Part shown: one piece after another, positions 24,791 through 42,497 of the stretch
Numbering within the stretch: the first letter of the stretch is position 1
Layout: each line of letters starts with the position of its first letter
Assembly: GCA_001793865.1 (NCBI GenBank)
Contig: MGIS01000023.1
Span: 1 to 57,831 of the forward strand
Origin: Candidatus Wolfebacteria bacterium RIFCSPLOWO2_01_FULL_47_17b
GTDB lineage: Bacteria; Patescibacteriota; Minisyncoccia; UBA6257; JAGOQP01
Length of the DNA: 57,831 nucleotides
Direction of reading: 5' to 3'
The notes under the pieces: generated by a model
Told to the model about the DNA's origin: nothing
The model's input: the letters and a program-made list of their open reading frames with translations, nothing else
Databases searched by the model: none
Position numbers and translations under genes: made by a program

Positions 24791-25624
24791 ATGCAACAAC
24801 TGGTGCTGCGACACGTGCAAAATTATGAGCTCCTTGATTCCGGAGGTGGGGTTAAGCTTGAGCGGTTCGGCTCCTACATACTTTCCCGCCCCGACCCCAA
24901 CGCCATATGGAACAAGCGGCTGCCGGACACCGAGTGGCGCAAAGCGGACGCGACTTTTACGAAGGGCTGGGACAATAAGCGGGTGCAGGAGCCGTGGACG
25001 TTTGCGTATGAACAACTTTCACTTCTTTTAAAGCTTACGCCGTTCAAACATACGGGGCTGTTTCCCGAACAGATAGAAAACTGGGAGTGGTTCGGAGATC
25101 TTTTACGCGGGCGCAAAGACCCCAAAATACTCAATTTATTTGGTTATACCGGGGGTGCAACATTGTATACCGCCGCGTGCGGTGCCACCGTCACGCATAT
25201 AGACGCGTCAAAGCCCGCCATGATTTGGGCACACGAGAGCCAGGAAGCGAGCAAACTGACTGCCGCGCCCATACGCTGGATAACGGACGACGCGCTCGCG
25301 TTCGCCAAGCGCGAAGTTCGGCGCGGGAACACGTACGACGGCATCATATTGGACCCTCCCTCATTTGGCAGATCGCCGAAAGGAAAGGTGTTTAAATTCG
25401 AAGAAGATATGCATCCCCTGTTGGATACCATCCGACAACTGCTTTCCAAAGAACCGTTGTTTATACTTTTAAACTCATATGCAACTGGATTTTCAGCCGA
25501 AACGATCAAGAATCTCGTCGCCGACCATATCCGTGGGACGTACGAATACGGCGAACTCAACATCAAAGAATCCCACACCGACCGCCTGCTCCCCTGTAGC
25601 CAATTCGTGCGGGTGATGTTTTGA
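24791..25624 (+). CDS. class I SAM-dependent methyltransferase (RlmI/YwbD-like)
   Basis: LNLFGYTGGATL..., ILDPPSFGRS. Confidence 0.8.
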   Translation: MQQLVLRHVQNYELLDSGGGVKLERFGSYILSRPDPNAIWNKRLPDTEWRKADATFTKGWDNKRVQEPWTFAYEQLSLLLKLTPFKHTGLFPEQIENWEWFGDLLRGRKDPKILNLFGYTGGATLYTAACGATVTHIDASKPAMIWAHESQEASKLTAAPIRWITDDALAFAKREVRRGNTYDGIILDPPSFGRSPKGKVFKFEEDMHPLLDTIRQLLSKEPLFILLNSYATGFSAETIKNLVADHIRGTYEYGELNIKESHTDRLLPCSQFVRVMF

Positions 25625-25635
25625 TTCTGGTCAAG

Positions 25636-25660
25636 GTGGTCAAGGTTTAACCTTGACCAC
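25636..25660. terminator. hairpin shared by the methyltransferase gene and the tRNA-Glu unit
   Basis: gtggtcaagg tttaa ccttgaccac. Confidence 0.55.
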
Positions 25661-25668
25661 TAAAGAAA

Positions 25669-25829
25669 ATCCCATCGGGAATCTCACAACTTCGTTTCAC
25701 GAAGTTTTCAAAACCCTCGGTTTTGAATAATTTCCTACACGAAAACTTACAAAGTTTTCGACCTTTCAAGATTCGAATCCCGAGGAATCATACAAAACAA
25801 AATCCGCCATAAAGGCGGATTTTGTTTTG
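25669..25829 (-). ncRNA. tRNA-3'-appended structured module, copy D (after tRNA-Glu)
   Basis: Block-wise homologous to 41047-41207. Identical 22-nt hairpin attcaaaaccgagggttttgaa (25707-25728). Ends gtgagattcccgatggg, repeating the tRNA-Glu 3' end. Unclassified. Confidence 0.5.
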
Positions 25830-25904
25830 TGACCCCATCGGGATTCGAACCCGAGTTCCAGGAATGAGAATCCTGTGTCCTAGACCGGACTAGACGATAG
25901 GGCC
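25830..25904 (-). tRNA. tRNA-Glu(CTC)
   Basis: ggcccta tc gtc tagtccggtctag gac a cagga ttCTCat tcctg gaac tcggg ttcgaat cccga tggggtc a. Confidence 0.88.
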
Positions 25905-34485: not shown

Positions 34486-37400
34486 TTACGTTCTCAATAC
34501 GTCAACCTGCGCTTCCTCCGCTTCCCTGCGGTCCTTTCTGAAAAATATCCAGAAAAGAAGGAAGAGTACGGCGAGAAGAAGTAGTAAGCTGAACCACCAG
34601 AATCCGAAGAGTGCCCTGAACGCATCCAGGATGGTTGCGGTCAGCGTGCGTCCTGAGGTCACATCCGCGGTTAGATACGCGCTGATGGATTGCGGGCGGT
34701 CGCGGTCATCCTCGAAGTTGAGTATTGCGCTGAAGATGAGCACATCTCCCTTACTGGCAGAATTTGCCACCTTTGCGTTGATCGTGATCTCGGTTTCCGC
34801 GTCCTGCGGAATAGTGCCGAGTTCGTACGTGATGCTGTTCTGCTCGCGATCCGCCACCGGGTAGTTTGAAGAATCATATGCAACTTCCGTAGGCAAGATG
34901 ATCTTTAGGTACGCGTTGGAAAGATCGTAGTTGCAATCATTGCGATAGGTTATCGTGTACACAAACTCCTGACCCGCGGCGAGCTGATTGTTATCAAGCG
35001 TCGGCACCAGAAGCGCGCATGAAGCGCCGGATCCGAATGAGGTCGTTACCACAGTCGGAATTCCTCCTCCAGACGGGATTGTGCCTGCTCCGGTCGTCCG
35101 TACAACATAGATAATGCCCTGCGCCTTGCCGTAGCGGTTTTCACCGACAACACGGAAGAAATAGATCGTATTTGGAACAAGCCCTGTTATCGCGTGCGAT
35201 ATCTGCGCGGCTCGCGTGCCCGAACCGATTGGCTGTTCGAATGTTTTTGATCCAAGCGCCGCTGTGCGGCCGTATTCGAACCATGCCGTTGCCGGTTCGC
35301 CGTTCGGATTTACCGTGCCGTTCAAGAGTGCCGCATTCTGTGAAATGTTGGTCGCGAGCAGTGTTTGCACGATCGGTGCGCGCGCTCCCGAACCGAATGT
35401 GTTGAAGTCGAGTATTTCGCCTTCACCTGACGCGGTTCTGGTCTTTGCGACCGCGCGTACATAGTAGGTCGTACCGGGCCGCAAATCATCCACTTCAATC
35501 GAGAAGTCCACCAGGTCGCCTCCCTCGTACGTTTTTTCCTCCGTTTTCTGTGAAAGGTCGTCTTCCGAAGTGCCGTATTCAAACCATACGGTCGGATCGG
35601 ACACTCTGGAACGAACTGCCCCATAGAAGATAGCGGACGTGGAATTAATCACGGAAACGTTTTCGGTGCGGATGATCAGGCGTGAACCACCTCCGCCGCC
35701 CCCTCCACCGCCGATGCTCTCGTCATCATCGCCCTGTCCGGTAGTAAAGCTCAGAATCGCTCCTTGATCGGTGCCGAGTTCGTTGGATGCCGTAACACGG
35801 AAGTAATAGGTGGTGTTGTCGCTCAAGCCGCTGATCGGCACTGACACGTCTATTGCACTGGTGCCGGATCCCACCGAAGACACGGTTGTGTTCTGGAACG
35901 TATCGAATGTTGCGGATGTGCCGTACTGGAAACGATAGGATGTCGAAATGCCGTTCGGATCAACTGCACCATGCAGGCGAGCAGATGTCTTGGTGATGTC
36001 CGTCGCGTCCTGAGTCGTTGCATCCGGTGCGCTTCCCCCGCCGCCATTCCCATCGTCATTGGTTATAAACGTCAGGATGGCTCCGAATGATTTGCCGCGC
36101 TCGTTTTGCGCCACAATACGGAAGTAATAGCGGGTATCGGGGTTCAAGCCCGTAATAACAGATTCCACATCGCGCGCCACGAGACTCACGTCTTGTGTAG
36201 GCGTAACCGATGTAAGATTCGTTGATTGCGTTCCGTACTCAAACCAATAGCTTGCGCTGAATCCGTTTCCGTCTACATACCCCCTGAGTTGCGCGCTTGT
36301 ATGTGTAATCTCATGTGCCGGGTTTGTCTTGACCATCGGCAATCCACCTGGCTGATCTCCGGTAGTAAAGCTCAGAATCGCTCCTTGATCGGTGCCAAGT
36401 TCGTTGGATGCCGTCACACGGAAGTAATAGGTGCTATTGCCTGTAAGCCCCGAAATGGTGGCCGACACGTTGAACGCACCATCTTGCGATCCTGCCGAAG
36501 ATGCCGCCGTTCTTTGGAATGTTTCCAATGTAGGCGATGTTCCGTACTGGAATTGATAACCAGTCGAAAGTCCGTTTGGATCAACCTGCCCATTCAGGCG
36601 GGACGATGTCTGCGAGATGTTGGTCGCGGCAAGTGTCGTGGCTTTTGGAGCCGCTCCTTTGCCATCGTCTCCACCGTCTTTCTGGGTCGTAAAGGTGAAT
36701 ACGGAGCCGAATGATTTGCCCATTTCGTTCTGCGCGGCTACTCGGAAGTAGTAGGTTGTGTTAGGCGTCAGACCGGTAATAAATGCTGTGACATCTCCTG
36801 CTCCGGTTCCGATTGACTGGCTCGGCGTAAGTGAAGTCAAAGAAGTCTTTGCTGTGCCGTACTCAAACCAGTAGGTTGTACTGAGGCCGTTTGCATCCAC
36901 ATGCCCATTGAGTACCGCCCGAGTCTGCAATATATCTGTTGCCGGAGTTGTTTTGACGATTGGAGAACCTCCTCCCTGAATTGAAACTGTCTTGAAGCTC
37001 AAAATGTCTCCACGTACGGATCCCAGTTCGTTACTTGCAACAATGCGGAAATAATAAGTCGTGTCCGATTTCAATCCCGAAACAACCGAAGACACCGCTA
37101 CAGCTCCGTCTCCCGATCCAGCTGACACCAGCGGAAGCGAGATATGCGTAGCCAGCGTCGGCGAGGTGCCGTACTGGAAAGTATAAGTGGTCGAAATCGC
37201 GTTCGGATCAACTATTCCATTGAGTCGCCCTGCCGAAGTAGTTATATTCGTCGCGTGGCGTGTTTCAACAAACGGCGCGTTTCCATTGCCACCATTTTCA
37301 TCTTTGCCTGTCGTGAACATCAGCACTGAACCGAACGATTTTCCTTTCTCGTTCTGTGCCGCTACGCGGAAATAGTATGTGGTATTCGGTGTGAGTCCGC

Positions 37401-38931
37401 TCATGATTGCGTCTACGTCCCCTGCTCCGGTACCGATTGACTGACTCGGTGTAAGTGAGGTCAAGGAAAGCTTAGATGTGCCGTACTCAAACCAATAGGT
37501 AGTGTTGAAACCGTTTGGGTTGACCGAGCCATTGAGCGTCGCCTGCGCATGCGTAACGCCTGTCGCTTGCTTCGTCTGTACAATCGGCGAACCGCCCTGC
37601 GGTATTTCAAGTGTCTTAAAGCTCAGGATTGAACCCTGGTCGGTTCCGAGTTCGTTTGAAGCTGTGACACGGAAATAATAAGTCGTGTTGGACGTAAGTC
37701 CCGTAACGGGAGCTGAAACGCCCACGAGTAATTCACCTGACCCCGCGGAAGATATCGTTGCGCTCTGGAACGTGGCCAATGTCGGCGAGGTTCCATACTG
37801 GAAACGATAAGTCGTAGAAAGCCCGTTTGGATTAACCGATCCTTGTAAGCGCGCGGAATTGGTCGTTATCTGCGTTGCCGGATTGGTTAACGCGTTAGGT
37901 CCGCTTCCGCTGCCATCACCAACTGACTTTGTCTTGAATGAAAGTACTGAACCAAAAGACTTTCCGTGCTCATTTTGTGCCGCGATGCGGAAATAGTAAG
38001 TAACGTTCGGCTTCAGGCCGCTGATTGCCGCTTGTACGTCTTCTGCTCCGGTGCCGAGCGATTGACTCGAAGTAAGCGATGTAAGCGCGGTCTGCGACAT
38101 ACCATATTCAAACCAGTAGGTTGTTGCGGATCCCTTCGGGTCCACATAGCCATTAAGCTTTGCGCTTGCGTTCGAGATGCTCGTTGCGGCACGTGTTTCA
38201 ACAGCGGGTTTATTGTCCACTGGTTTTTTAGCCGCGACAAATTTAAACACCGAAACAAGCTGTCCAACCTGTAATTCACTCGGAGGTCCCACAACCGTTC
38301 CAAGATTTATTCCTTGTGAACTTGTGATAGTCGATCCGTCTTGGCCATTTGGCAACGGGTCTGGATTGTCTATATCATATCCGGGATACCATTTGGTGTA
38401 TTGAAACTGCAGTTCCCACGAACCGCTCGGCTGCTCTTCTACCGTAAGAGATGCGTCTCCGTACACTGCCGAGGCGTTATCCGCCCAGAGTTTTGCGGTT
38501 ATCTCCACTTTCTGCGAATTATAGTTGTAACGGATATCCGGAAGCGCGATTTTGGTATTGAGCGCGGATTCGTGCGAAGTATTGTGATAATACACATTAA
38601 AGCTGACAAGCTCACCGTCCTTGACCGGCTTTATTTTCTCCCAGCAGTTTTTATTGTCCGCTCCATCGCGTGTTATGTTGCAGGTGCGCAACGTAGGTTT
38701 GTCATTCGGATGATTGTTAAACACTGCGCCGCTGTCTGTTTCCTCTGGCGCTATGACTTTTCCTCCCGATCCACCTGATGTTTTCTTCGGCTGACTGATT
38801 GGAATTGCTTCCGAATCAGTGCCTATGCCGGGAACGCGCGCATCCGACGTGGATGCGAAAAATACGCCGTTTCCAGCTATCATACCGACCATGAGCAGCC
38901 CAATTACAATGTTTTTTGCTATATTTTTCAT
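34486..38931 (-). CDS. 1481-aa surface protein: signal peptide, N-terminal beta domain, ten FN3-like repeats, DUF11-like domain, C-terminal TM anchor
   Basis: Start MKNIAKNIVIGLLMVG at 38931 (track 38988). Repeats carry ..PNG..T.Y.F.YGT.....TYYFR..A.NE.G. C-terminus ILDAFRALFGFWWFSLLLLLAVLFLLFWIFFRKDRRE. Confidence 0.9.
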   Translation of the reverse strand: MKNIAKNIVIGLLMVGMIAGNGVFFASTSDARVPGIGTDSEAIPISQPKKTSGGSGGKVIAPEETDSGAVFNNHPNDKPTLRTCNITRDGADNKNCWEKIKPVKDGELVSFNVYYHNTSHESALNTKIALPDIRYNYNSQKVEITAKLWADNASAVYGDASLTVEEQPSGSWELQFQYTKWYPGYDIDNPDPLPNGQDGSTITSSQGINLGTVVGPPSELQVGQLVSVFKFVAAKKPVDNKPAVETRAATSISNASAKLNGYVDPKGSATTYWFEYGMSQTALTSLTSSQSLGTGAEDVQAAISGLKPNVTYYFRIAAQNEHGKSFGSVLSFKTKSVGDGSGSGPNALTNPATQITTNSARLQGSVNPNGLSTTYRFQYGTSPTLATFQSATISSAGSGELLVGVSAPVTGLTSNTTYYFRVTASNELGTDQGSILSFKTLEIPQGGSPIVQTKQATGVTHAQATLNGSVNPNGFNTTYWFEYGTSKLSLTSLTPSQSIGTGAGDVDAIMSGLTPNTTYYFRVAAQNEKGKSFGSVLMFTTGKDENGGNGNAPFVETRHATNITTSAGRLNGIVDPNAISTTYTFQYGTSPTLATHISLPLVSAGSGDGAVAVSSVVSGLKSDTTYYFRIVASNELGSVRGDILSFKTVSIQGGGSPIVKTTPATDILQTRAVLNGHVDANGLSTTYWFEYGTAKTSLTSLTPSQSIGTGAGDVTAFITGLTPNTTYYFRVAAQNEMGKSFGSVFTFTTQKDGGDDGKGAAPKATTLAATNISQTSSRLNGQVDPNGLSTGYQFQYGTSPTLETFQRTAASSAGSQDGAFNVSATISGLTGNSTYYFRVTASNELGTDQGAILSFTTGDQPGGLPMVKTNPAHEITHTSAQLRGYVDGNGFSASYWFEYGTQSTNLTSVTPTQDVSLVARDVESVITGLNPDTRYYFRIVAQNERGKSFGAILTFITNDDGNGGGGSAPDATTQDATDITKTSARLHGAVDPNGISTSYRFQYGTSATFDTFQNTTVSSVGSGTSAIDVSVPISGLSDNTTYYFRVTASNELGTDQGAILSFTTGQGDDDESIGGGGGGGGGSRLIIRTENVSVINSTSAIFYGAVRSRVSDPTVWFEYGTSEDDLSQKTEEKTYEGGDLVDFSIEVDDLRPGTTYYVRAVAKTRTASGEGEILDFNTFGSGARAPIVQTLLATNISQNAALLNGTVNPNGEPATAWFEYGRTAALGSKTFEQPIGSGTRAAQISHAITGLVPNTIYFFRVVGENRYGKAQGIIYVVRTTGAGTIPSGGGIPTVVTTSFGSGASCALLVPTLDNNQLAAGQEFVYTITYRNDCNYDLSNAYLKIILPTEVAYDSSNYPVADREQNSITYELGTIPQDAETEITINAKVANSASKGDVLIFSAILNFEDDRDRPQSISAYLTADVTSGRTLTATILDAFRALFGFWWFSLLLLLAVLFLLFWIFFRKDRREAEEAQVDVLRT
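35056..38205 (-). repeat. coding tandem array: ten ~103-aa FN3-like units with alternating A/B types (621-bp super-period)
   Basis: About 78 nt at 35737-35814 recur at 36358-36435 with 2-3 mismatches. A type has WFEYG..QNE.GKSFG; B type has FQYGTSPTL..ASNELGTDQG. Confidence 0.9.
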
Positions 38932-38978
38932 AGTATTGTTGTTTATATTGACGTACGCATAAAGCGCACAATTGCTAC

Positions 38979-39007
38979 AAGGTAGCATATTTACTGTTTC
39001 GTGTCAA
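38979..39007 (-). promoter_or_regulatory. promoter TTGACA-17-TACCTT abutting a hairpin
   Basis: Minus strand ttgaca (39002-39007), tacctt (38979-38984). Confidence 0.35.
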
Positions 39008-40975: not shown

Positions 40976-41046
40976 TGGGAGATTAGTTAAGTGGTATAAC
41001 GGGCGTCTCCAAAACGCCGGTCGGGGGTTCGATTCCCTCATCTCCC
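40976..41046 (+). tRNA. tRNA-Trp(CCA)
   Basis: gggagat ta gtta agtggta taac g ggcgt ctCCAaa acgcc ggtc ggggg ttcgatt ccctc atctccc g. Confidence 0.9.
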
Positions 41047-41207
41047 GCAGAGGATAAGGGAGTGTACGGAATCGAATCTTTGGGGGTCGGGGTATTTGTA
41101 AATACCCCGTGTAGGGATCCGCCGGATGGCGGAATTCAAAACCGAGGGTTTTGAACGAAGCTCCGCCAGCTGGTGGAGCGGAGGTGAGATTCCCTCATCT
41201 CCCGCAG
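41047..41207 (+). ncRNA. tRNA-3'-appended structured module, copy C (after tRNA-Trp)
   Basis: Four hairpins. Ends in an exact 21-nt repeat of the tRNA-Trp 3' end (41030-41050 = 41187-41207). Homologous to 25669-25829. Unclassified. Confidence 0.5.
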
Positions 41208-41237
41208 AAAAAATAACCCCATGGGGTTATTTTTTTG
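41207..41237. terminator. bidirectional terminator (tRNA-Trp unit / rpmG)
   Basis: aaaaaataacccc aat ggggttattttttt. The rpmG stop codon lies in the right arm. Confidence 0.75.
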
Positions 41238-42056: not shown

Positions 42057-42497
42057 TTATAGTTCAAAACGGGCAAACCGTTCAACCTTCATATTCTCCC
42101 CGGTCGTTGCAATCGCCTGCGTAACCAAGTCCTGAATTTTTTGAGAAGGATCTTTAATAAACTCTTGTTCCAGCAGTTCATCAACGGTCTGCGGATTCAT
42201 TGATGCGATCTGCATCGCGATTTCGTGCGCGAGTTCACGGAATGTTTCGTTCTTTGCCACAAAGTCGGTTTCGCAGCGTAGCTCCAGCAATACACCGATT
42301 CTTCCGCCGTGCACATAGGTTTCCAACACGCCTGAGCCGGTTTTGCGTTCTGCCTTGGAAGATGCTTTCGCGGCTCCTCGTTCCATTAGCAATTGCTTTG
42401 CCTTTTCAATGTCTCCTCCGGCGTCTTTCATGGCTTTGGCGCAGTCCATAACGCCTGCCTGTGTTTCTTCTCTCAGTTTCAGTATAGTGTTGTCCAT
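42057..42497 (-). CDS. tsf: elongation factor Ts (short 146-aa form)
   Basis: UBA-like N-terminus LREETQAGVMDCAKAM, TDFVAKN core motif, downstream of rpsB. Confidence 0.9.
   Translation of the reverse strand: MDNTILKLREETQAGVMDCAKAMKDAGGDIEKAKQLLMERGAAKASSKAERKTGSGVLETYVHGGRIGVLLELRCETDFVAKNETFRELAHEIAMQIASMNPQTVDELLEQEFIKDPSQKIQDLVTQAIATTGENMKVERFARFEL

Follow-up and report, generated by a model that had tools for sequence, protein, structure and literature searches.

A family of folded elements with target-derived arms at tRNA and protein gene ends in Patescibacteria: probable miniature insertion cassettes

The module located 3' of the tRNA-Glu(CTC) gene in a contig of Candidatus Wolfebacteria bacterium RIFCSPLOWO2_01_FULL_47_17b (MGIS01000023.1, assembly GCA_001793865.1; the whole stretch of 57,831 nt is called the window) is a member of a large, undescribed family of folded elements of ~150 nt in the Patescibacteria, or candidate phyla radiation (CPR). 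The same core was present in more than 200 sampled copies, almost all of them from Patescibacteria, and ~40% of the copies followed tRNA genes of any isotype; the majority of the remainder came right after the stop codons of genes such as rpsI, rpsJ and pyrG. The family has a covarying fold, arms and flanking repeats derived from the target gene, a polarity of insertion that can be read at pyrG, and a patchy but old distribution. The explanation that we favor, with moderate confidence, is that these elements are miniature, protein-less insertion cassettes within the 3' ends of genes in Patescibacteria. Individual loci are referred to below by number (L021, for example).

RESULTS

Distribution of the family

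The 19-mer TCAAAACCGAGGGTTTTGA was found at at least 119 loci in a set of contigs containing one genome per species. The full motif was present at ~100 of these loci, nearly all in metagenome-assembled genomes of Patescibacteria. Carriers included Saccharibacteria, Paceibacterota, Staskawiczbacteria, Berkelbacteria and others, often with several copies per genome. The 19-mer matches in L006, L007, L015, L033, L047, L086 and ~10 other loci lacked the rest of the motif and were excluded as chance or unrelated matches; these matches fall within unrelated coding regions in Comamonas, Sporolactobacillus, Desulfobacteraceae and others. A pattern built without hairpin P4 of the core (described below) identified 115 further loci in metagenomes. 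In IMG/VR the exact core had no match, and none of the 43 matches to a degenerate pattern was confirmed by the covariance model, indicating that no real viral copy was present among them.

We also compared the element with known structured RNAs. Rfam 15 (4227 models, including the hepatitis delta virus (HDV), hammerhead, hairpin, twister, pistol and hatchet ribozymes as well as riboswitches) was searched at gathering thresholds with the window and 18 protein-linked loci, and at E ≤ 10 with both module regions of the window. No family matched the element at the gathering threshold, and the matches overall consisted of tRNAs, one tmRNA and chance-level matches. The Rfam tRNA model (RF00005, clan CL00001) scored the true tRNAs only (56.3 and 64.3 bits) and gave the modules no score, even at E ≤ 10. 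A full-text literature search that included the core sequence did not return a description of the element.

A covariance-model search had been proposed together with an earlier reading of the window from its letters alone (the sequence-only reading). Carried out with model R1, this search returned exactly two copies in the 57.8 kb, one at tRNA-Glu and a sister copy at tRNA-Trp, each with a score of 66 bits and an E-value of 1.5e-14. Two of the eight tRNA genes in the window carry a copy and the remaining six are bare. Both modules fold as a multi-helix junction closed by a helix of 11-12 bp, in agreement with the closing helix given by the sequence-only reading; the z-scores of the folds were −3.9 (Glu) and −5.0 (Trp), and no shuffled sequence was as stable. 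Four blocks are common to the two copies (TCGAATCTT..GGTCG, CGTGTAGG, ATTCAAAACCGAGGGTTTTGAA and GTGAGATTCC), and the hairpins between these blocks differ between the Glu and Trp copies by compensatory changes.

Target-derived arms and flanking repeats

Copies were located 55-200 nt after a tRNA gene on the same strand in 51 of ~105 cases in the genome sample and in 32 of 98 cases in the metagenome sample, with nearly every isotype represented. Another 45 of the 98 metagenome copies lay directly after the stop codon of an open reading frame (ORF). The protein hosts include rpsI (at least six genomes), rpsJ, pyrG, rplK and others, as well as L11-like and L15-like C-termini that were named from reading the peptides; the host genes are highly expressed housekeeping genes. 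The general anatomy is the gene, which ends in X1 (a copy of its terminal segment, X), followed by a spacer, an arm termed X' that is antisense to the start of X, the core, and X2, a second copy of the segment. In tRNA-linked and protein-linked copies alike, X' covers 6-24 nt from the start of X in reverse complement. In L108, for example, an exact duplication of 32 nt comprises the final eight codons of rpsI and a further 8 nt, and ATTGTGGG after the first copy pairs with CCCACAAT, which opens the second.

Flanking direct repeats of at least 12 nt were detected in 46 of 98 copies, compared to 0 in a reversed-sequence control. Overall the repeats extend from 10 to more than 90 nt and are exact over up to 53 nt. 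The start of the repeat coincides exactly with the boundary of the core, which is also the first base pair of the closing helix P1; in tRNA-linked copies this point lies in the T-loop, 14-20 nt before the 3' end of the tRNA. Young copies with exact repeats of 32-53 nt, a repeat class that includes L058, L083, L108 and L116, already have perfect P1 helices, which argues that X' is made from the target at insertion rather than being slowly adapted later. To look for a linked enzyme, 810 ORFs within 3 kb of copies (~100 loci) were clustered all-against-all. No recurrent recombinase, reverse transcriptase or nuclease was found in these neighborhoods; only housekeeping genes were.

The order of parts at the Glu locus is, on the minus strand, the tRNA, a 17-bp hairpin, ATTCCTCGGGATTCGAATC, the set of hairpins and GTGAGAT-TCCCGATGGG (Table 1). 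X1 of this copy spans the 3' part of the T-loop, the 3' strand of the T-stem and the start of the acceptor 3' strand. The sequence-only reading had reported a direct repeat of 25671-25680 at 25834-25843, and the 10-mer CCCATCGGGA was indeed present there and nowhere else in the window (chance expectation 0.14; two matches in 0 of 100 shuffles). The repeat spacings it gave for the Glu and Trp copies (163 and 157 nt) were reproduced, as was the stem hairpin 3' of tRNA-Glu, which is perfect over 17 bp and has an equivalent in the ortholog L121. X' contains a 12-nt perfect inverted repeat with the tRNA (25772-25783 versus 25838-25849, 100% complementary), and in the minimum free energy (MFE) fold X' pairs with 25669-25680. 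At the Trp locus, the 21 nt of X2 (41188-41208) are identical to 41031-41051 and form the exact part of a repeat of 30 nt at 90% identity.

The orientation of the 5' arm was a point on which the sequence-only reading was in error. It read ctcgggattcgaatc as mimicking the T-stem 5' strand and T-loop of tRNA-Glu in the sense orientation; this segment is antisense, with 12 nt that are 100% complementary to the T-loop and T-stem 3' strand. The sense and antisense readings coincide at Glu because TTCGAA is palindromic. The Trp copies decide between them, as the tRNA sequence TTCGATT is accompanied by AATCGAA in X' in the window and TTCAATT is accompanied by AATTGAA in L134. Among tRNA-linked copies, X' matched antisense better than sense in 72 of 79.

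These results bear on the explanation originally offered for the Glu copy, namely that the module is a tRNA-specific T-arm or minihelix with a T-loop expanded by ~115 nt. The P1 3' strand of tRNA-linked copies is a true copy of the T-stem 3' strand plus acceptor 3' strand, P1 is flanked by the T-loop-like sequences TTCGAA / GAGATTCC, and the acceptor 5' strand of tRNA-Trp could pair with X2. However, the same core, together with a target-derived closing helix and repeat, also occurs 3' of protein-gene stop codons, where P1 is coding sequence. The predominantly antisense 5' arm and the failure of the tRNA model to score the module also argue against a T-arm. As the same anatomy is found after rpsI, rpsJ, pyrG, rplK and other protein genes, the resemblance to tRNA comes from the target and not from the element, and we regard a tRNA-like structure as extremely unlikely. 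Two related proposals of the sequence-only reading fared better: the closing helix does change with the host gene in ~80 distinct tRNA-linked copies covering nearly all isotypes, and the view of the module as an insertion-type element flanked by direct repeats is supported.

Two further observations were made on Trp copies. The acceptor 5' strand of tRNA-Trp in the window (40977-40986) is equally complementary to X2 (41194-41203) and to its own 3' strand. Judged from base complementarity, an alternative tRNA is conceivable in principle, in which the Trp transcript would use X2 in its fold and the module would protrude from the T-loop. In L134, X' of the Trp copy tracks a G57-to-A change in the T-loop of the tRNA that is absent from X2, i.e. 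X' follows the functional tRNA copy here.

A conserved fold with a putative purine triple helix

From 5' to 3' the element consists of the P1 5' strand (X'), a purine run, an invariant GTC, hairpin P2, a junction, hairpin P4, A(A/G)GAG, a variable hairpin P5, GAC or GTGAGAT, and the P1 3' strand. The junction after P2 reads GTGTAGGAA(ATTA), and in some copies it holds an optional hairpin, P3, flanked by TGA..GGA. Changes on both sides were observed in 7 of the 8 pairs of P2, and 98% of the cells of this helix were paired. For P2 and P4 together, 99% of cells were paired, compared to 89% in shuffles and at most 76% in slid registers. The consensus of P4, (T)TCAAAACC-GAG-GGTTTTGA(A), was exact in 63% of copies in a sample that had not been selected on P4. 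Its outermost pair switches between T-A and C-G in step, and compensated P4 stems are present in distant copies, such as TTAGAAACC/GGTTTCTAA in L121 and in the second copy of L021. In the Trp ortholog of L134 (2586-2722, minus strand) an insertion of ~62 nt is tolerated in the P4 loop. The 'AGGAG' that follows P4 was considered as a Shine-Dalgarno sequence and rejected, as a start codon does not follow.

The purine run has a regular relationship to P2. Read backwards from GTC, it repeats the P2 5' strand read forwards, such that G faces G and A or T faces A. This mirror rule held for 123 of 134 A positions, which were matched by A or T, compared to a mean of 72 and a maximum of 90 in shuffles. 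Triple-compatible positions amounted to 84.5% in register (150 distinct copies) and to at most 63% when the register was shifted, and layers 1-7 contained almost only G·G-C, A·A-T and T·A-T. The Glu orthologs illustrate how the three strands change together. L121 has GGGGG-GTC-GGGGTATT...AATACCCC and the window has GAAAG-GTC-GAAAACTT...AAGTTTTC; where the duplex changes from GGGG to GAAA, the third strand follows.

Because a mirror repeat cannot form Watson-Crick pairs, this pattern is the signature of an intramolecular antiparallel triplex of the purine motif. Both attributes of that motif, an antiparallel third strand and three-way covarying layers, were found at the sequence level, in one specific register and over seven layers. 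The purine strand, the GUC turn and P2 look like a seven-layer antiparallel purine·purine-pyrimidine triple helix composed of G·G-C, A·A-U and U·A-U. Other arrangements were considered and rejected. The purine run cannot form Watson-Crick pairs with the 3' strand of P2, as it is the mirror of that strand and not its complement. A G-quadruplex does not fit a Glu copy that swaps G-runs for A-runs coordinately. A pyrimidine-motif triplex on the opposite strand is less consistent with the data, as 15 of the 134 A positions have a gene-strand T, which is non-canonical in that motif.

Both P1 and P2 contain T·G pairs, which, together with the T·A-T layers, favor the gene-sense strand as the folding strand. 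In principle this strand could act as DNA, and we considered whether the element is a folded recombination site of single-stranded DNA comparable to attP(+) of CTX phage or attC of integrons. The gene-sense strand would fold with an X':X duplex, and a host recombinase would integrate a tiny circle. CTX attP(+) and attC likewise have two inverted target-like arms ~100 nt apart that pair only as a single strand and lie directly after a gene, and an inverted target copy, ~100 nt and a direct target copy at one end of the insert would be the remnant of a folded-hairpin integration. Tandem units are present in L021, the purine·purine-pyrimidine triplex is chemically best documented for DNA, and the surrogate gene end resembles those of integrase-driven elements (e14 in icd, PMC6379469). 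On the other side, the many unrelated targets would not be recognizable by a known Xer- or IntI-type enzyme, Xer/IntI binding motifs are absent, and clustering of the 810 neighboring ORFs did not reveal a linked recombinase. Unlike the phage and integron sites, the element has target-specific arms, a sequence-conserved hairpin and triplex core, and a gene-end duplication. Copies in operons and 5' leaders are certainly transcribed, the T·G pairs in P1 and P2 are of the G-U type, a circle of 130-200 bp of duplex DNA would be implausible, and the element was not seen in a free form. We consider this explanation very unlikely.

Polarity of insertion

The direction of the insertion could be determined at pyrG. 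This gene carries the element in L079 and is empty, as judged with the covariance model, in L178 and L180 (each with an 89% identical protein) and in L181 (78%). In the empty alleles L180 and L181 the next gene lies within 29 nt or overlaps, and X2 of L079 is contiguous with the same downstream gene. X2 differs from L180 at 13 of 69 positions, which corresponds to the gene-wide baseline of 13.2 ± 3.6, and X1 differs from every relative at 20-25 of 69. As X2 is collinear and diverged to the baseline level and X1 is more diverged, we conclude that the native end of the gene is X2 and that the addition consisted of X1, the spacer, X' and the core. By analogy, the same polarity would apply to tRNA copies, and X2 of the Glu copy is probably the displaced native tRNA end.

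According to the sequence-only reading, the module had been inserted between a tRNA and its original terminator. This scheme does not agree with repeats that begin inside the T-loop, nor with pyrG, where the downstream copy is the native end and the upstream, functional copy came with the element. If the pyrG-type polarity is applied to the Glu locus, the terminator hairpin there would also have arrived with the element. The strongest terminator-like hairpin of this locus is the one between the tRNA and the module, not one 3' of the module. Of the hairpin terminators claimed 3' of both copies, the one at Trp looks classical by eye but was not called by the terminator scanner, and the downstream hairpin at Glu lacks a T-tract.

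X1 and X2 of protein-linked copies differ mainly at third codon positions (9, 4 and 32 differences at the three codon positions, summed). In several pairs, 3-7 synonymous differences leave the encoded peptide unchanged (NWYVQTHRVWK, GVDISIKI and PQWKKR, each followed by the stop codon). In other copies X2 is frameshifted or truncated, as in L022 and L052, and X2 of L091 has also decayed. The rpsJ copies of L078 and L105 can be compared directly. Their gene bodies differ by ~15-20%, mostly silently, and X1 (27 nt) is identical in both; X2 shows four changes, all silent, including TAG to TGA. This comparison hints that X2 of these copies is, or recently was, under coding constraint.

Coding constraint on X2 would be expected if the element were an intron-like cleaving and ligating ribozyme. 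X' would guide cuts immediately 5' of the first base of X in both copies, the X1-spacer-X'-core segment would be excised, perhaps as a circle, and the gene body would be joined to X2; the reverse reaction would be insertion. In the Glu and Trp copies X' is able to pair with both X1 and X2, the repeat boundary is the first P1 pair, and those X2 segments in which the frame, the stop codon and the peptide are preserved and all changes are synonymous appear as if translated. A circularly permuted form exists (see below), as in small ribozyme classes, and theta HDV-like ribozymes provide a precedent 3' of tRNAs (PMC10879173). However, there was no match to an Rfam ribozyme even at E ≤ 10, and by our comparison by hand the helix order does not map onto the HDV, hammerhead or hairpin folds. 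Many X2 segments are decayed or frameshifted (L022, L052 and L091 among them), and X2 of the Glu copy could not rebuild the acceptor stem. A ribozyme of this kind is therefore doubtful, and we consider it quite unlikely. Specific candidates that were tried by hand, i.e. a permuted HDV ribozyme, loops A and B of the hairpin ribozyme, the hammerhead and the archaeal bulge-helix-bulge intron, did not fit the helix order either.

Mobility, persistence and the permuted form

Evidence of movement within genomes came from copies with identical cores. The cores at two tRNAs of one genome were 100% identical, with X' and X2 specific for each tRNA (tRNA-Val and tRNA-Gly of L051; also L041). In L021 (520-830, minus strand) two tandem units follow tRNA-Met, each with a tRNA 3' part, a terminator, an antisense arm and a core, and the distal core is truncated in P4; this arrangement looks like successive insertions or an unequal crossover.

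The two copies in the window are old residents of their loci. Both are retained in relatives in which the neighboring proteins are 64-67% identical, including the closest informative relative (L121 and L134), and the Trp copy was present in all nine strain contigs with an identical Pcm. For the family, the empty-site comparison suggested in the sequence-only reading came out in favor of an insertion, as empty sites exist. For the window, relatives of the methyltransferase beside tRNA-Glu and of Pcm beside tRNA-Trp were compared; neither these nor the nine strain contigs contained an empty allele of the Glu or Trp locus. Since the helices of orthologous copies have changed by compensation, we conclude that the fold is under selection in place.

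A circularly permuted form of the motif was found in L063 (1746-1800), L075 (5600-5830, two in tandem), L076, L092 and L101 (2800-2860). This form measures ~75 nt; its ends open in the P2 loop, AAAGAA replaces P1 and P5, and a variable AT-rich hairpin precedes the motif. It is followed by a conserved CTGTGATCGT tail that leads directly to a start codon, such as that of atpD or rnhB. The permuted copies do not have the gene-end repeat, and they show that the core can function inside mRNAs.

The persistence of the fold and the permuted form raise the possibility that the element is a host cis-acting RNA domain, i.e. a regulatory, processing or stabilizing structure at gene ends, in 3' trailers and for the permuted form in 5' leaders, that is bound by a conserved CPR protein or a ligand, in which case the duplications would be by-products of copying. 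Compensatory changes keep the structure between orthologs over large divergence, and the near-invariance of P4 (63% exact) is expected of a specific binding site. The permuted form lies directly upstream of atpD, rnhB and other start codons without a gene-end repeat, and the hosts are highly expressed housekeeping genes. This explanation nevertheless does not account for a host-made closing helix and a repeat of 20-100 nt every time, nor for tandem units and identical cores with different flanks in one genome. In addition, terminators often separate the host tRNA from the core, and the host genes do not share a common pathway. Of the competing explanations we find this one the most plausible, and still judge it unlikely.

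Features of the two loci and of the window

The coordinates of both copies are given in Table 1. The palindrome 3' of the Trp copy is probably a bidirectional terminator that serves the Trp unit and a convergent small gene, which is ribosomal protein L33 in the annotation of a strain contig (gene table of L125). A tandem pair of TGGTCAAGG sequences (25628-25660) contributes to the hairpin without a T-tract, which lies between the Glu module and the end of the convergent RlmI-like methyltransferase gene (24791-25624).

Table 1. Coordinates of the Glu and Trp copies and adjoining features in the window
Feature	Position	Strand	Description
Glu copy
tRNA-Glu(CTC), host gene	25829-25904	minus	ARAGORN; Rfam tRNA 56.3 bits; last ~18 nt (T-loop onward) are X1
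X1, repeat copy within tRNA-Glu	25834-25846	minus	10 nt exact, 13 nt at 92%; spacing 163
Spacer hairpin	25792-25830	minus	Perfect 17 bp, TTTTGTTTTG 3' arm, intrinsic-terminator-like; between tRNA-Glu and module
X', P1 5' strand	25770-25788	minus	ATTCCTCGGGA then TTCGAATC; antisense to tRNA-Glu T-loop, T-stem 3' strand and acceptor
Putative purine third strand	25763-25767	minus	GAAAG; mirror image of P2 5' strand GAAAA; family mirror covariation
GTC turn, third strand to P2	25760-25762	minus	Invariant columns in family alignments A1 and A2
Hairpin P2	25741-25759	minus	GAAAACTT-TGT-AAGTTTTC; inverted repeat; family covariation
Conserved junction	25728-25740	minus	GTGTAGGAAATTA; alignment A2; other copies (including Trp) hold optional hairpin P3 here
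Hairpin P4	25707-25727	minus	TTCAAAACC-GAG-GGTTTTGAA; near-invariant sequence family-wide
Variable hairpin P5	25688-25706	minus	AACTTCGT-GAA-ACGAAGTT; MFE fold; length and sequence differ among copies
Junction GTGAGAT	25681-25687	minus	3' boundary of core; conserved in tRNA-linked copies
X2, P1 3' strand	25669-25680	minus	TCCCGATGGGAT; second copy of tRNA-Glu end; diverges from tRNA after 10 nt
Downstream hairpin	25636-25660	minus	12 bp, without T-tract; abuts convergent methyltransferase gene end (24791-25624); not called as terminator
Trp copy
tRNA-Trp, host gene	40977-41048	plus	
Trp sister copy	41058-41208	plus	3' of tRNA-Trp
X'	41058-41076	plus	
GTC	41086-41088	plus	
P2	41088-41109	plus	
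P3	41118-41133	plus	
P4	41135-41155	plus	
P5	41160-41179	plus	
X2	41188-41208	plus	
Terminator hairpin	41208-41235		Perfect 14-bp palindrome AAAAAATAACCCCA/TGGGGTTATTTTTT flanked by A6/T7; terminator by eye; not called by terminator scanner

Two protein genes elsewhere in the window were also recorded. A 1500-aa ORF (34486-38988, minus strand) has an N-terminal signal-like segment, ~10 repeats of a ~95-aa unit ('..NGLSTTY.FQYGTS..YYFR..A.NE.G') and a C-terminal membrane anchor; from these features it is probably a large surface protein. The EF-Ts gene (42057-42497, minus strand) encodes only 146 aa and, together with the gene content, fits a Patescibacteria genome.

DISCUSSION

A model for the insertion cassette

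The insertion cassette that we favor would operate as follows. The cassette would carry X1 as a surrogate for the last 16-100 nt of its target, which for a tRNA would extend from the T-loop to beyond the 3' end and for a protein gene would comprise 6-35 terminal codons and the stop codon. Next would come a short spacer, in many cases a terminator hairpin, followed by the antisense arm X' of 6-24 nt and the conserved core of ~85-130 nt. The gene would be kept intact through X1, and its native end, X2, would be pushed 3' of the core. Pairing of X' with X2 would then form P1 and close the multi-helix junction. The active form would be RNA, namely the trailer of the host gene, made by read-through where a terminator intervenes. 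P1 would be the helix by which the target is recognized as well as a record of that recognition, with X' as the recognition arm.

When a new gene is colonized, the target would be copied in both orientations, possibly by template switching or by an RNA-guided reaction of host enzymes. Later spread from strain to strain could occur by ordinary homologous recombination, which would also explain an X1 that looks foreign. Selection on the fold would imply a cis function for the transcript, for which protection or definition of its end is our best guess.

Several points weigh against this model. A terminator-like hairpin lies between the tRNA and the core at the Glu locus and many others, and the core may be transcribed only by read-through. 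Template switching or guiding is suggested by the anatomy, and the active form could be RNA or single-stranded DNA; the RNA purine triplex is disputed (PMC7583470). The polarity comes from one locus, pyrG of L079, where the excess divergence of X1 is modest (z ~1.9-2.6), and homologous recombination among strains that already carry the element could also yield a diverged X1. Some X2 segments are under apparent coding constraint, which a pure relic model does not predict, while others are frameshifted (L022, L052). Finally, long-term conservation at orthologous sites weighs against a purely selfish element.

A more far-reaching proposal, which we advance only tentatively and think unlikely, is that the family is a CPR-confined, protein-less, RNA-guided mobile element. 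Its core RNA would contain a natural purine-motif triple helix, its 5' arm would find the gene end, and the element would catalyze or template its own insertion, with the target copied such that the gene remains intact. An element of this kind would represent a new class of mobile RNA, either ribozyme-like or template-switching.

Comparison with known systems

The closest likeness is to integrative elements of gene 3' ends, such as e14 and phage 21 in icd and the genomic islands located in the T-loop or 3' end of tRNA genes. e14 brings a surrogate gene end to icd (PMC6379469). Like these, the present element inserts in the 3' part of a gene, supplies a functional end and displaces the native end as a repeat. 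The two copies differ mostly synonymously, tRNA repeats run from the T-loop past the 3' end, and tandem accretion occurs. A terminal-segment repeat with the functional copy on the insert side, as in elements moved by a tyrosine integrase, was found in the flanking repeats and in the polarity at pyrG. In contrast, the insert is only ~130-250 nt long, there is no integrase within it or among the 810 neighboring ORFs (neighborhoods only were covered), and dozens of unrelated targets are used. The antisense arm and the covarying folded core are absent from att sites. We conclude that the element behaves like an integrative element with a surrogate end, yet is not one of them, given the lack of an integrase, the many unrelated targets and the structured core.

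Miniature inverted-repeat transposable elements (MITEs) and the palindromic elements of Rickettsia are likewise small, multi-copy, protein-less, patchy and tolerated in or beside essential genes. MITEs differ in having terminal inverted repeats of their own and a fixed short target duplication; here the ends are copied from the target and the internal structure is selected. We rejected a MITE, as copies with identical cores have different inverted arms, which are derived from the target, and the repeats measure 10 to more than 90 nt. A diversity-generating retroelement was also rejected, since the X1-X2 differences of L079 involve all four bases (by eye) and not just adenines of a template copy, and a reverse transcriptase family was absent among the neighbors.

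Theta HDV-like ribozymes lie right after phage tRNAs (PMC10879173). They share with the element a structured RNA directly 3' of a tRNA and a helix formed with sequence 3' of a defined boundary. Unlike them, the element does not match a ribozyme model, has another helix order, also follows protein genes and is absent from viral contigs. With group I and group II introns the element has in common a guide that pairs with the flanking target, and copies at orthologous sites suggest a homing-like spread. However, its core is much too small for such an intron, its guide pairs only on the downstream side, the exon sequence is present in duplicate, and it has neither catalytic domains nor an intron-encoded protein.

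Natural RNA triplexes, such as those of the ENE of MALAT1 and PAN and of the SAM-II and preQ1-II pseudoknots, resemble the putative triple helix in being intramolecular, located in the major groove, ~7 layers long, compact and at a transcript end. They are of the pyrimidine motif (U·A-U and C+·G-C) with a parallel third strand, whereas the one described here is purine-rich and antiparallel. The purine motif is well established for DNA, and an RNA third strand of this type is disputed and has not been established (PMC7583470). Taken together, the element fits none of the known classes against which it was tested (MITE, diversity-generating retroelement, known ribozyme, tRNA-like RNA, Rfam family).

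Implications

CPR bacteria make up a large share of bacterial diversity and have tiny genomes that are thought to be repeat-poor. An abundant, phylum-wide folded element in the ends of their tRNA and ribosomal protein genes was previously undescribed. Covariance model R1 can be used to annotate hundreds of fragments in CPR genomes that appear as "partial tRNA" or "pseudo-3'-end" sequences. If the active form is RNA, the core would be the first natural purine-motif RNA triplex, with seven layers of G·G-C, A·A-U and U·A-U. The combination of a guide arm and a surrogate end would mean that a sequence of ~100 nt can colonize essential genes harmlessly while encoding no enzyme. The underlying mechanism, be it a ribozyme, a template switch or an enzyme acting in trans, would be new biology and possibly a programmable principle of insertion.

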